A DNA stretch of 43,161 nucleotides from the UHGV virus genome UHGV-0191544; one strand, 5' to 3'. The translations under genes and the position numbers were made by a program. This DNA is from a virus. The notes below the pieces were generated by a model. That model was given only the letters and a program-made list of their open reading frames with translations. It did no database searches and was not told where the DNA came from. How positions within the stretch are numbered: the first letter of the stretch is position 1; each line of letters opens with the position of its first letter. This document shows, piece by piece, positions 1,319 to 41,175 of the stretch.

Positions 1319-1345
1319 ATAAAACAAAACTCGCCGTAGCGAGTT
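1319..1345 (-). terminator. Intrinsic terminator candidate downstream of the last early-left gene
   Basis: 7-bp stem AACTCGC/GCGAGTT with 4-nt loop, followed by T-rich tract on minus strand; approx coordinates. Confidence 0.45.
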
Positions 1346-1364
1346 CAGATAAAAGAAATCCGCA

Positions 1365-2165
1365 TTAAGCGGCGTCGGTGAATTCAAATAAAAAACCGGC
1401 TTGCGCCGGCTCTCTCATCTTTCTGTCTACCCATGCTGATATCGATGGCGGGTGCACCTTTTCAATAGCAGCGCGAAGTACAGCTGTACGTGCCAGTTTG
1501 TCAGTAATCTCAGGAAATCGCTTCTCTGTCTTCGGTACGTTAACAGCAACATTAGTAGAATCCGCACTGGCGAACGGATACATACCAAGAACTCTCACGT
1601 CGAGCATTCGAAGACCATGAATTTTCACTTTCAAATTACGATTGATATAAAGCTCAGTGAAAACTTCATCCATTCTCTGTTCCCACCATTTAGAGCGTAT
1701 GTGCCTGTGTGGGCCGCAGCATCCAATCGCCACCCATTCAAATTTGCCAGAAAGGCGTAAAAGACGTTCAATTGATTCGTCGGTATGCCAGACCGGAACC
1801 GCTTTTGATTTTAGCCAATCAGGAACCAACTCAATCTGCTCGTCGTTTTCTGCCTCTGTCCCTTCGATAACGTCAGGTATAAGAAACCATTCAATTCTGC
1901 TGAACCACTTCCCAACAAAGTCGTAGAATTTTGCTCGCCTCTTACTCCAGTCTACCGGAGTGCCTTTCTTTAATGCTTTCATCCAGTCGCTAAAAGCACC
2001 GTTATCAAGGCGTATATCACAAGGGAACATGGCAATCTTTTTCATCTGCTCTGGTCTGGCAAATGAAACAAAAGCCCCACCATCACGGTAAAGGGCTTTA
2101 ATCAGCATATCTGTAGGGGCATGCTCATCACCCCATATTGGGCTGCCGTGAAAGTGGATGGTCAT
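1365..2165 (-). CDS. Hypothetical 266-aa protein, last gene of early-left operon; possible TGT/DpdA-like transglycosylase fold (speculative)
   Basis: Long ORF; motifs in TGT-like order (RLDNGAF, IPDVIEG, VAIGCCG, IHGLRMLD); no zinc CxCxxC..H motif seen. Confidence 0.3.
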   Translation of the reverse strand: MTIHFHGSPIWGDEHAPTDMLIKALYRDGGAFVSFARPEQMKKIAMFPCDIRLDNGAFSDWMKALKKGTPVDWSKRRAKFYDFVGKWFSRIEWFLIPDVIEGTEAENDEQIELVPDWLKSKAVPVWHTDESIERLLRLSGKFEWVAIGCCGPHRHIRSKWWEQRMDEVFTELYINRNLKVKIHGLRMLDVRVLGMYPFASADSTNVAVNVPKTEKRFPEITDKLARTAVLRAAIEKVHPPSISAWVDRKMREPAQAGFLFEFTDAA

Positions 2166-2484
2166 ATTATCCCCATATAAAAGAAATCCCCGCGAGTGCG
2201 AGGATTGTTATTCATTGCCGATATTCACCTTTATCGCGAACACCTTTACCGGTTTATCACCGAAGTGCGGATGTGTGATTGTCTTGATTTCATATCCGTC
2301 ATACGGAACATCAATTCTGCGGCTGGAATCGTCGCGCTTCGGATATCCCTTTGTGATAATCAGTCGGTCATACTACCGGAACATAATTCGCTTATTCCAG
2401 TAGTCATTACACAGGCGATACTCTTCCGTTTTATCTCCGCGAATCATGGCATCGAAGTATTCACCTTTGACGGCAAGTTGCAGG

Positions 2485-2772
2485 TTAGCCACGACCTTCC
2501 TCCTTGGGCTTGTGAATTTGTATCGTCATGCCGCTTTGAGTGGTGACTACAATGACAGAACCAGGCTGAAGGCTGTTAAGATTGAATGCTTCGTAAAACG
2601 AATCCAATGCCAGTGCTTTTTTATTCTTTCGGTTCCACCAACGCCATCCATTGCTACAGGCTACACTGACAATCCACTGTCCACTCCTGTAAGCCATATA
2701 AAACCAGATGAGCAAAACCTGAATGAATGCTATCCAGTCAATAATCGTATATTTCGCGAAGGAGTCCATCAC
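2485..2772 (-). CDS. Hypothetical protein, 95 aa, hydrophobic N-terminus
   Basis: ORF in operon orientation, stop overlaps next gene. Confidence 0.4.
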   Translation of the reverse strand: MMDSFAKYTIIDWIAFIQVLLIWFYMAYRSGQWIVSVACSNGWRWWNRKNKKALALDSFYEAFNLNSLQPGSVIVVTTQSGMTIQIHKPKEEGRG

Positions 2773-3675: not shown

Positions 3676-4170
3676 TCACTCTCCTTTGATGCGAATGCCA
3701 GTGGTACTCATTCTCCTGATTTCCCAGAGCACACGAGGAATACCACCGTTTCCGACCGGATCGCGTTTACTCCGCAGGGCGACGCTTGATTCCGCCCAGC
3801 TTTTTCTTGGAGGAAGCTCTTTCACACGAACAAAACCAGCTGCGCGAAGAGATGCTCCTGATTCATCTGCCTGGGTGTACGTAATACAACGTTGATAACC
3901 CATAGCTTTTGCTGCCCGCCAGACAGCACCATAAAGCGCGCTGTTAGCGTTGCGTTCTCCTGTGGTACATGTGCGATTTACTTCAAGCGTTAATCCATCG
4001 TCCAAATGTCGTGCAACAGGTCGACCAGCTGTCGCCACACCTATCAATTCTCCGGCATTATTTCTCAGACCAATGCTGAATTTATGCCCCACTGGTGGTT
4101 TATTGTGTCGGTGGTGCTGTGCGATAAATTCCTGCGCCGCTTTCAGCGTTATAGGTGAAATGACCATCAC
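3676..4170 (-). CDS. Hypothetical protein, 164 aa
   Basis: ORF start overlaps upstream gene stop (ATGA); no family recognised. Confidence 0.55.
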   Translation of the reverse strand: MMVISPITLKAAQEFIAQHHRHNKPPVGHKFSIGLRNNAGELIGVATAGRPVARHLDDGLTLEVNRTCTTGERNANSALYGAVWRAAKAMGYQRCITYTQADESGASLRAAGFVRVKELPPRKSWAESSVALRSKRDPVGNGGIPRVLWEIRRMSTTGIRIKGE

Positions 4171-12050: not shown

Positions 12051-12212
12051 ATGACAAAACGTCGTAAGAAATACCAGGAAAAAGAAGAGATTCGACACCC
12101 TGATTCACCTGAGGGATTAGTGGTAGCCGCAGCAAATAACAGGGCGTTCGCAGAGCGCCTTGTTGGTGTTTACAGACTAGCCAAAGCAGGAGTGAAACAT
12201 GGGCGTCGTTAA
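12051..12212 (+). CDS. Small basic protein, 53 aa, between cII and the replication gene
   Basis: ATG 5 nt after AGGAG; overlaps O-like start by 14 nt. Confidence 0.3.
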   Translation: MTKRRKKYQEKEEIRHPDSPEGLVVAAANNRAFAERLVGVYRLAKAGVKHGRR

Positions 12213-13089
12213 GTTAGCTGATTACAGGCATAACCCTGTACAACATCAGGAGGCATCCAGTATGGGGTATGTCTCTATACACCGCCAGTTTATGGACAGC
12301 AGACTCTATAAGGACTCTCAGGCAGTACATCTTTGGCTTCACTTAATCCTCAAGGCTAATCACGAATCTACTGTCGTCAATACGGATATCGGTCCGATAA
12401 CTGTTGATCGCGGTCAGATGATAACTGGACGCCCGTCGCTGGTCAGAGAAACATTCATTCCAGACAACAAAGTTCGGAGCTTATTACGGACTTTTGAGTC
12501 GAAAGGGATGCTTAATATTTGCTCGATGGGGAAGAAATTTAGCCTGTTTACAATCGTTAAATATGACGATTTTCAGGCAAAAAATTGTCCAACGGTTGTC
12601 CAACAGTTGTCCAACGCAAACACCAGTAATGGCGCGGCTCTCAGCGGAGATTGTCCAACGGTTGTCCAACGGTTGTCCATAAACAATAATATAAATAATA
12701 TCTCTAATACTGACGTATTAGAGAGTGCCACAGCAGACAAAAAGTCTGACAAGAAAAAACCTTCCGTCAGCTGTCAGGATGTTGTCGATGCTTACCACGA
12801 AATCCTTCCTGAAGCGCCAAGAATCCGCGCACTGAATGACAAGCGTAAAAACCAGATCCGAACGTTCTGGCGCAAAGCCGGAGTGATAACCCGACAGCTT
12901 GAAGGGCATGGTTTCACGATGCAGGACTGGAGAAATTATTTGAGCTACGTAGGCGAAAATTGCCGATGGATGTTCGAAGAGCGTCCAAACCATCAACGCG
13001 GAACTGTCTGGCACAAAAAGGGATTTGATTTCCTGCTTAACGATAATACCTACCTGAAAGTTCGTGAGGGTGAACACGATGACCGATAA
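12199..13089 (+). CDS. Replication initiator (lambda O / P22 gp18-like), contains origin iterons
   Basis: Position upstream of helicase; iterons embedded in coding sequence; start may be internal Met at 12262. Confidence 0.65.
   Translation: MGVVKLADYRHNPVQHQEASSMGYVSIHRQFMDSRLYKDSQAVHLWLHLILKANHESTVVNTDIGPITVDRGQMITGRPSLVRETFIPDNKVRSLLRTFESKGMLNICSMGKKFSLFTIVKYDDFQAKNCPTVVQQLSNANTSNGAALSGDCPTVVQRLSINNNINNISNTDVLESATADKKSDKKKPSVSCQDVVDAYHEILPEAPRIRALNDKRKNQIRTFWRKAGVITRQLEGHGFTMQDWRNYLSYVGENCRWMFEERPNHQRGTVWHKKGFDFLLNDNTYLKVREGEHDDR
12585..12680. repeat. Origin iterons: six 11-bp TTGTCCAACGG-type repeats in two clusters, followed by AT-rich tract
   Basis: Clusters at about 12585-12617 and 12651-12680; AT-rich 12681-12720. 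Confidence 0.7.
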
Positions 13090-39709: not shown

Positions 39710-40864
39710 TCATATCTTTTCATCAAGCCAATCCGCCCACCACTGCATCATTTCTCTGCGCTTATCGAGATACTGAGCATGGTTGTAAATTCCACGCACA
39801 GAACCGCCGTTGGCATGTGCTAGTTGCACTTCAATAGCATCGGCGGGCCATTCGTGCTCGTTCATAATCGTGCTGAATTCATGCCTGAATCCGTGACCGC
39901 TTTCCAGACCCTCATAGCCAATTTGTTTGATCACAAGCAATACCGCGTTCTCGCAGATTGGCTTCTTCTTATCGTTGCGTCCGGCAAAAACAAACTCTGA
40001 TACTGGTTTAGTGATTGAGCTTAGCGTAGTGAGAAGTTCAACCACCTGGTCTGACATCGGGACCACATGAATTTTGCGTCCCTTCATCACACTGGCGTCG
40101 ATGGTGATAATCCTGTTTTCAAAATCGACGTTCTTCCATTGCATGGAGCGAAGCTCTTTCGTTCTGAGGGCTGTGTAGCGTAAAACTTTGGTCGCAATGA
40201 GCGATACGATGCTTCCTGAAAATGTTGCCAGTGCTTTGTTAAATGCCGGGATCTGGTCTGCAGGAAGAAACGGGAAGTTCTTCTTGCGGTATCCCTTCAT
40301 GGCGTCAGCAAGGTCAGGTGCCGGGTTATATTTAGCCCTGCCGGTGACAATAGCGTAACGGAAAACCTCGCCGCATCTTCTGCGTGCTTTGTTGGCTCGC
40401 TCCATTGCACCGCGATCTTCGAATCTGCGGATTACTTCCAGCAGTTGCATCGGCTCAATATCCTGAATCTCAAGACCGCCGATGATGGGTAAAATGTCGT
40501 CATCAAACATTTTGGCAAGTTCAGTCGCATATCCTACTGACCAGACTTGCTTCTTGTGCTCGTACCATTCCTTGTAAATGGCGCTAAAGGAATTGTTGTT
40601 AGACGAAGCCTTTTTCGCTTTTACCGGATCGATGCCAACCGAGATGTCTTTCCTCGCGGTCCATGCTTTATCTCTTGCCTCCTGCAAAGTCATTAGCGGA
40701 TATTTTCCTACGGTCAGGATTTTCTCCTTACCGTCAATCTTGTAGCGAAGCTGCCATACCTTTTTCCCGGATACAGGGACATAAAGGTACAGGCCATTAC
40801 CATCGAGAAGGCGGTATGGTTTTTCTTTCGGCTTTGCTGCTTCAATCTGCTTAACGGTGAGCAT
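39710..40864 (-). CDS. intS: Tyrosine integrase, P4/IntS type
   Basis: N-terminus LTVKQIEAAKPKEKPYRLLDGNGLYLYV typical of P4-family integrases; adjacent to tRNA; likely ATG at 40864. Confidence 0.9.
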   Translation of the reverse strand: MLTVKQIEAAKPKEKPYRLLDGNGLYLYVPVSGKKVWQLRYKIDGKEKILTVGKYPLMTLQEARDKAWTARKDISVGIDPVKAKKASSNNNSFSAIYKEWYEHKKQVWSVGYATELAKMFDDDILPIIGGLEIQDIEPMQLLEVIRRFEDRGAMERANKARRRCGEVFRYAIVTGRAKYNPAPDLADAMKGYRKKNFPFLPADQIPAFNKALATFSGSIVSLIATKVLRYTALRTKELRSMQWKNVDFENRIITIDASVMKGRKIHVVPMSDQVVELLTTLSSITKPVSEFVFAGRNDKKKPICENAVLLVIKQIGYEGLESGHGFRHEFSTIMNEHEWPADAIEVQLAHANGGSVRGIYNHAQYLDKRREMMQWWADWLDEKI

Positions 40865-40909
40865 GGGTAAAAATCCGGTGGGTAAAATTATTTTATCCAC
40901 TTTTTACCC
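40865..40909. promoter_or_regulatory. GGGTAAAA motif cluster (two direct, one inverted) at the integrase start; candidate arm sites
   Basis: Same 8-mer as at 868..887; approx coordinates. Confidence 0.35.
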
Positions 40910-41024: not shown

Positions 41025-41039
41025 ATGGTGTCCCCTGCA
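41025..41039. repeat. att core, right copy, forming the 3' end of the tRNA
   Basis: Exact 15-bp match to 794..808. Confidence 0.65.
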
Positions 41040-41099
41040 GGAATCGAACCTGCAATTAGCCCTTAGGAGGGGCTCGTTATATCCATTTAACTAAGAGGA
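41025..41099 (-). tRNA. argW: tRNA-Arg (anticodon CCU)
   Basis: Reverse complement reads GTCCTCTTAGTTAAATGGATATAACGAGCCCCTCCTAAGGGCTAATTGCAGGTTCGATTCCTGCAGGGGACACCA. Confidence 0.9.
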
Positions 41100-41175
41100 C
41101 AATGCGGCATGAGTATACCCGCTAATGGACTGCGGGGTAAGTACGCTGCCGCTCGATTGCTTAAACCCTCGCCAT

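Follow-up and report, generated by a model that had tools for sequence, protein, structure and literature searches.

The window analysed here is the 43,161-nt virus genome UHGV-0191544, taken at its full length. Near its left end, an ATG-initiated open reading frame (ORF) on the minus strand (1365–2165, stop codon included) encodes a protein of 266 amino acids. RecT, Gam-like and Ea22-like genes of the early-left type are read from the same strand, and past the ORF, toward the left end, there are a 55-aa ORF, then torI/xis, and nothing else. The sequence-only reading had proposed an enzyme similar to tRNA-guanine transglycosylase (TGT) or DpdA, encoded by the terminal early-left gene. The position is nearly right, as the gene is distal in the leftward early operon, but the 55-aa ORF and torI/xis still lie beyond it. 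The identity is supported by a common protein family, by profile alignment to an experimentally validated phage DpdA, and by a set of invariant residues. We interpret the protein as a phage DpdA in minimal form, a TGT-superfamily enzyme (DNA guanine transglycosylase) that would act with a 7-deazaguanine made by the host, and we put the probability of this reading at roughly 0.7.

The AlphaFold2 model, built with 50 homologs, showed eight beta strands alternating with helices (predicted local distance difference test score, pLDDT, 91.9; predicted template modelling score, pTM, 0.88), and only residues 255–266 were disordered (pLDDT < 50). The structure prediction that had been suggested as a check thus returned the eight-stranded beta/alpha barrel expected of a TGT-type enzyme. 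Conservation was read from a window-family alignment (A2) of 71 diverse sequences, with identities to the window protein down to 24%, drawn from a word-indexed search and an exhaustive profile search. Only six columns were invariant in 71/71 members, namely D54, D98, H127, H183, D202 and S203, while F58, G148 and L185 were near-invariant. In the model, each of these conserved residues coincided with, or closely followed, the C-terminal end of one of the strands 3–8.

All four motifs quoted in the sequence-only reading were found, and they stand above chance, since they contain three of the six invariant columns (D54, D98 and H183) and the near-invariant G148. RLDNGAF (residues 52–58; 1992–2012, minus strand, as for all motifs here) closes beta3 and holds D54, the putative general acid/base, and F58, a putative base-stacking gate. 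IPDVIEG (residues 96–102; 1860–1880) places D98, a putative base-recognition aspartate of uncertain equivalence, just after beta4. VAIGCCG (residues 145–151; 1713–1733) forms the Gly-rich loop after beta6 with G148, and IHGLRMLD (residues 182–189; 1599–1622) lies on beta7 with H183 and L185. Not on that list were H127 and the probable nucleophile D202. H127 is at the end of beta5 in VWHTDES (residues 125–131; 1773–1793), and D202 is at the end of beta8 in ASADSTN (residues 199–205; 1551–1571), where the D202-S203 pair of the SADST motif would supply the covalent nucleophile.

The arrangement can be compared with the bacterial DpdA (bDpdA) structure, in which Asp95 is the general acid/base and Phe99, four residues on, is the base-stacking gate (PMC10164549). 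The base is read by Asp130 and His181, Leu236 stacks on it, a Gly-rich loop follows strand 6, and the nucleophile is Asp256; guanine exchange was abolished by Asp95Ala and likewise by Asp256Ala (PMC10164549). We infer that D54/F58, D98, H127, G148–G151, L185 and D202 match this set in order and strand position. D54 occurs in the D-x-G-x-F/Y pattern after beta3 and D202 follows beta8, so that D54 would correspond to Asp95 and D202 to Asp256 of bDpdA. The six invariant residues therefore fit a TGT-type active site. A conserved histidine (“9g His196”) was described as a mark of DpdA/DpdA1 that is absent in DpdA2 (Hutinet et al. 2019), and the window family retains two invariant histidines, H127 and H183. 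The zinc site (CxCxxC...H in the beta8/alpha8 insertion) is lacking, with about 60 residues following beta8. As had been stated beforehand, the C-terminal zinc motif is missing: the sole cysteines are those at positions 49, 149 and 150, and there is no CxCxxC.

As reference proteins we used the DpdA of phage CAjan, whose dpdA-deletion phage loses dPreQ0, and E. coli TGT. In PHROGs, the window protein had a single match, phrog_887 “queuine tRNA-ribosyltransferase” (E=1.4e-102, residues 1–265), and CAjan DpdA also belongs to PHROG 887 (E=8e-96). BLASTP aligned the two proteins directly at E=2e-5, with ~24% identity over 87 aa, pairing VWH with CFH, IGCCG with IGGMVG, KIHGL with KLHAF, and SADST with SCDSS. 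When A2 was aligned with a separate CAjan-family alignment, hhalign gave a probability of 99.0% and E=3.2e-18 over 183 columns. D54 was paired with D63 (LDNGAFS/LDSGAFS), H127 with H132, G148 with G153, H183 with H187, and D202-S203 with D206-S207. The second aspartate agreed less well: D98 is invariant and follows beta4, yet it fell opposite CAjan S102, and the invariant CAjan D105 fell opposite E101, a shift of three positions. A weak NCBIfam match of CAjan residues 147–212 to positions 199–261 of the DpdA profile NF041059, which contain Asp256 (E=0.002), supports the assignment of the nucleophile to D202 and CAjan D206. On this homology to a validated phage DpdA, we consider it highly likely that the window protein belongs to the phage DpdA family.

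Could the protein instead be a TIM-barrel enzyme of other ancestry, or a relic without activity, with only a superficial likeness to TGT? Several searches would be in keeping with this. The window protein, scanned directly, had no match in Pfam, NCBIfam, PADLOC or PDB sequences, and the comparison with PF01702 that had been proposed gave nothing even at E<=10. Profiles A1, A2 and A3 matched only spurious coiled-coil or metalloproteinase sequences in the PDB, and the 71 diverse members, searched one by one against Pfam and NCBIfam, yielded no TGT match and a single non-significant DpdA match (E=0.11). Foldseek against the PDB did not separate a TGT-type fold from generic TIM barrels, which were the top matches at E~1e-3. 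However, validated CAjan DpdA has no Pfam match either, so the absent Pfam match is usual for phage DpdAs and no evidence against this reading. In a viral structure library there were 26 matches at E<=1e-3, and all the named ones were phage “queuine tRNA-ribosyltransferase” proteins. Moreover, the putative catalytic residues are invariant in a family of 1,835 cluster representatives (exhaustive profile search, E<=1e-3), the hhalign match to a validated DpdA is strong as given above, and 82 E. coli genomes keep the gene with nucleotide identities of >=95%. An unrelated barrel or a relic is therefore extremely improbable and already largely refuted.

A second alternative, a TGT acting on host or phage tRNA, is favoured by the fold, which also matches tRNA TGTs, and by the label “queuine tRNA-ribosyltransferase”, which is both the PHROG name and the RefSeq name of the near-identical copy in phage HK106. 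The label, however, is inherited from remote homology. Compared with E. coli TGT, which scored 560 bits on PF01702, the window protein is about 110 aa shorter and has no C-terminal zinc subdomain, and E. coli already has its own TGT. Alignments of A2 and A3 by hhalign to E. coli TGT alone and to 79 gamma/beta-proteobacterial TGTs were not significant, although this TGT alignment was of low diversity (68–98% identity) and its sensitivity was probably limited. The sole hint was CAjan FLDSGAFSA opposite TGT LTDSGGFQV (E=0.017). The closest characterised relatives act on DNA, and family members are fused to DNA methyltransferases. We regard action on tRNA as very unlikely.

The fusions and neighbours of the relatives tie the DpdA family to a DNA substrate and to the preQ0 pathway. 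A 76% identical homolog (P0006) forms a single 460-aa ORF with a C-terminal Dam DNA adenine methyltransferase, a fusion seen in three independent samples (L088 3540–5383, also L089 and L090). In a P22-like prophage it takes up the same slot as the window gene, at the end of the early-left operon, with a Vut_1/YhhQ gene directly before and overlapping it. A 421-aa protein (P0125) carries a D12-class DNA methyltransferase N-terminal to the DpdA-like domain, which in this case is missing ~40 residues at the start of the DpdA profile; this fusion calls for caution. In a 335-aa protein (P0199; L091 2840–3847), an N-terminal PTPS/QueD domain is fused to a DpdA-like domain with all motifs kept. The gene of the preQ0 transporter YhhQ/VUT also overlaps the DpdA homolog upstream in Pectobacterium phage PEAT2 and downstream in Vibrio phage PS25B.1. 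At the family level, a link to 7-deazaguanine supply is thus found in the PEAT2, PS25B.1 and L088 neighbourhoods and in the QueD fusion; among the genes annotated next to the window DpdA gene, there was no preQ0-supply gene.

Expression signals suggest how the gene is read. Between 800 and 2900, no sigma70-like promoter was found, against 4.1 expected, while terminator-like hairpins were enriched (9 vs 1.9 expected). One such hairpin (2185–2206, minus strand) lies about 20 nt upstream of the start codon. A strong one, GCCGGCGCAAGCCGG followed by a T-run (1390–1415, minus strand), sits inside the ORF, among its final 50 nt, and its sequence codes for the disordered tail at the C-terminus (residues 255–266). 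Another (1327–1346, minus strand) is just downstream of the stop codon. Since no promoter was found there and terminator-like hairpins are enriched, the DpdA gene is probably read from an antiterminated leftward early transcript, and annotated PL and N in HK106 support such transcription. A moron with its own promoter was also considered and not upheld, given the lack of a sigma70-like site in this region.

In the mechanism we propose, once the prophage is induced or the phage infects a cell, the gene would be read distally within the antiterminated leftward early transcript. The enzyme would then flip a guanine out of duplex phage DNA, and the intermediate would be resolved by a 7-deazaguanine base, preQ0 or its amide ADG, from the E. 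coli queuosine pathway. E. coli, the host of the window prophage, encodes this pathway, and the prophage would depend on the host pool because it carries no preQ0 synthesis genes among those annotated next to its DpdA gene. The protein most likely exchanges a small fraction of the guanines in phage DNA for the host-derived base, and dADG, which was measured in Salmonella phage 7-11 and Pantoea phage MED16, may be what is finally formed. The presumed gain is escape from some host nucleases, which is the least-supported step; protection against restriction is plausible but unsupported for the DpdA-only clade.

The prophage spans ~40.2 kb and is bounded by a 20-nt direct repeat, the attL core at 794–813 and the attR core at 41026–41045, the latter equal to the 3′ end of tRNA-Arg(CCT). 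Its DNA is a mosaic of HK620/P22-like phages. The right host flank is E. coli argW-yfdC-mlaA, and the left flank (1–793) is the 3′ end of an oligosaccharide major facilitator superfamily (MFS) transporter gene, which occurs in 2,649/5,426 complete E. coli genomes. At the same site, another DpdA-carrying prophage adjoins dsdC instead. Because the MFS flank is found in only part of the E. coli genomes and dsdC flanks the other prophage, the argW-proximal locus is variable. The integrase gene (39710–40900) is at the right prophage end beside tRNA-Arg(CCT) (argW, 41026–41100), and an excisionase-like gene (882–1082), called torI in the annotation of a related E. coli genome, is at the left end. 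With xis on the left and int on the right, attP would lie between them in the circular phage, an arrangement that we take to be the KplE1/HK620-type recombination module.

Within the same operon, 1.5 kb upstream of the DpdA gene, 3676–4170 (minus strand) encodes a 164-aa protein. It matched the “Mom-like DNA modification protein” family of PHROGs (PHROG_1384, E=1.4e-43) and, in NCBIfam, the “XF1762 family protein” model (NF045478, 207 bits vs cutoff 50), so the operon has a second putative gene for DNA modification. Other genes fill this position in other DpdA-carrying prophages, so a specific linkage between the Mom-like and DpdA genes is not evident. Directly upstream of the DpdA gene, an ASCH-domain gene (2207–2492, minus strand), homologous to ST104 orf6 (97.6% nucleotide identity), contains an in-frame stop, TAG, following codon 39 (MANLQ...IMFR*YDRLIITKGYP...). 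This is probably a pseudogene or a sequencing variant, and this stop makes the gap upstream of the DpdA gene look non-coding. Farther right, 11-nt tandem repeats (TTGTCCAACGG-like) form two clusters at 12573–12690, within the ORF 12199–13089, and are probably origin iterons inside a putative replication-initiator (O-like) gene.

At >=95% nucleotide identity, the DpdA gene was present in 82/5,426 complete E. coli genomes (~1.5%), always on the chromosome, and all the listed E. coli records annotate it as “hypothetical protein”. The DpdA identity itself is already known. HK106 gp029 (AFH20717 / YP_007151699) is 98.9% identical to the window protein over all 266 aa and was catalogued as DpdA in Supplementary Data 1 of Hutinet et al. 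(2019), so that our classification adds nothing beyond that work. The same list contains the proteins of 7-11, PEAT2, SEN1, SPN3UB and BTP1, all of which are tblastn matches of the window protein. These authors set apart a gamma-proteobacterial cluster of “singleton DpdA” proteins whose function was uncertain. The window protein belongs to the DpdA-only clade of gamma-proteobacterial phages. In the literature, no work on the function of a singleton DpdA from a lambdoid or temperate phage was found. For ~1.5% of complete E. coli genomes, a “hypothetical protein” in lambdoid/P22-like prophages can thus be read as a DNA-modifying enzyme of the DpdA family. The remaining interest is in the biochemistry of DpdA-only phages, that is the base, the sites and the benefit. 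Their function matters given that host defences attacking 7-deazaguanine DNA specifically, GrwAB and Dag1/Dag2, have now been described, and an inducible E. coli prophage would be a convenient genetic system in which to study it.

Among known systems, HK106 is the closest. As in the window, its gene lies at the far end of the PL operon and is followed by a 55-aa lambdap35-like ORF and xis. The two phages differ in that HK106 is an HK97-like siphovirus with lambda-type int/xis, whereas the window prophage is HK620/P22-like, with a torI/intS (KplE1-type) module at argW.

The DpdA proteins of 7-11 (YP_004782407) and MED16 are of the same family, with 58% and 42.8% identity to the window protein, respectively, and the MED16 protein was linked to TGT 2ASH by HHpred (99.18%). 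Both phages lack preQ0 synthesis genes, and dADG was measured in the DNA of both. However, they are of other phage types, and the link between dADG and dpdA in them is correlative. Phage 7-11 DNA contains 50 dADG per 10^6 nt (about 0.02% of G); MED16 DNA contains dADG at about 0.13% of G and trace dPreQ0, and its restriction digestion was not noticeably affected.

These measurements also bear on a different possibility, an active DNA transglycosylase with another substrate or purpose, such as direct ADG insertion, a rare-site mark, or a glycosylase-type anti-defence activity. ADG is a QueC intermediate. That both measured DpdA-only phages contain dADG rather than dPreQ0, at only 0.02–0.13% of G, that no DpdC-like amidase is known in 7-11 or MED16, and that MED16 gained no restriction protection would agree with such an enzyme. 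No conserved partner gene able to turn preQ0 into ADG was found, as the neighbours differ among the window prophage, phage 7-11, HK106 and a further E. coli prophage. Altered base specificity has already been proposed for other DpdA subfamilies (Hutinet 2023). On the other hand, the trace dPreQ0 in MED16, the links of relatives with QueD and with the transporter of preQ0, YhhQ, and the insertion of preQ0 by validated DpdA1 enzymes speak against it, and we consider another substrate or purpose unlikely. A bolder version, in which the DpdA-only clade of temperate enterobacterial phages installs ADG at rare, specific positions and is not a bulk anti-restriction preQ0 insertase, seems doubtful. 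If it were true, ADG would come straight from the host QueC reaction or else be the product of an unrecognised amidase, the sparse ADG would serve as an epigenetic or anti-defence mark of low density, and host DNA might be marked as well once the prophage is induced.

The preferred reading, a minimal DpdA fed by the host, has experimental counterparts in the DpdA1 enzymes of the Queuovirinae CAjan and 9g, which are validated DNA preQ0 transglycosylases. CAjan DpdA resembles the window protein in its PHROG, in the D, H, Gly-loop, H and DS motifs, and in having neither a zinc motif (no CxCxxC) nor a Pfam match. It differs in its length (306 aa), its longer C-terminus, the full folE-queDEC cluster beside it, and the extent of modification (~30% of G). 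When 9g dpdA alone was expressed in E. coli, dPreQ0 appeared in plasmid DNA, which indicates that the host preQ0 pool is sufficient. The bacterial DpdA of S. Montevideo (PDB 7UI4), from the Dpd restriction-modification system, has 413 aa and a 128-residue Ins8 zinc subdomain; it needs the DpdB ATPase and is encoded in a dpd cluster. Unlike it, the window protein has no Ins8 subdomain, no DpdB ATPase and no dpd cluster; NF041059, NCBIfam and PADLOC gave no match, and its neighbours are ordinary lambdoid early-left genes. Relative to TGT (PF01702), the window protein lacks a significant profile match, the N-terminal lid and the zinc domain, and DNA rather than tRNA would be its expected substrate.
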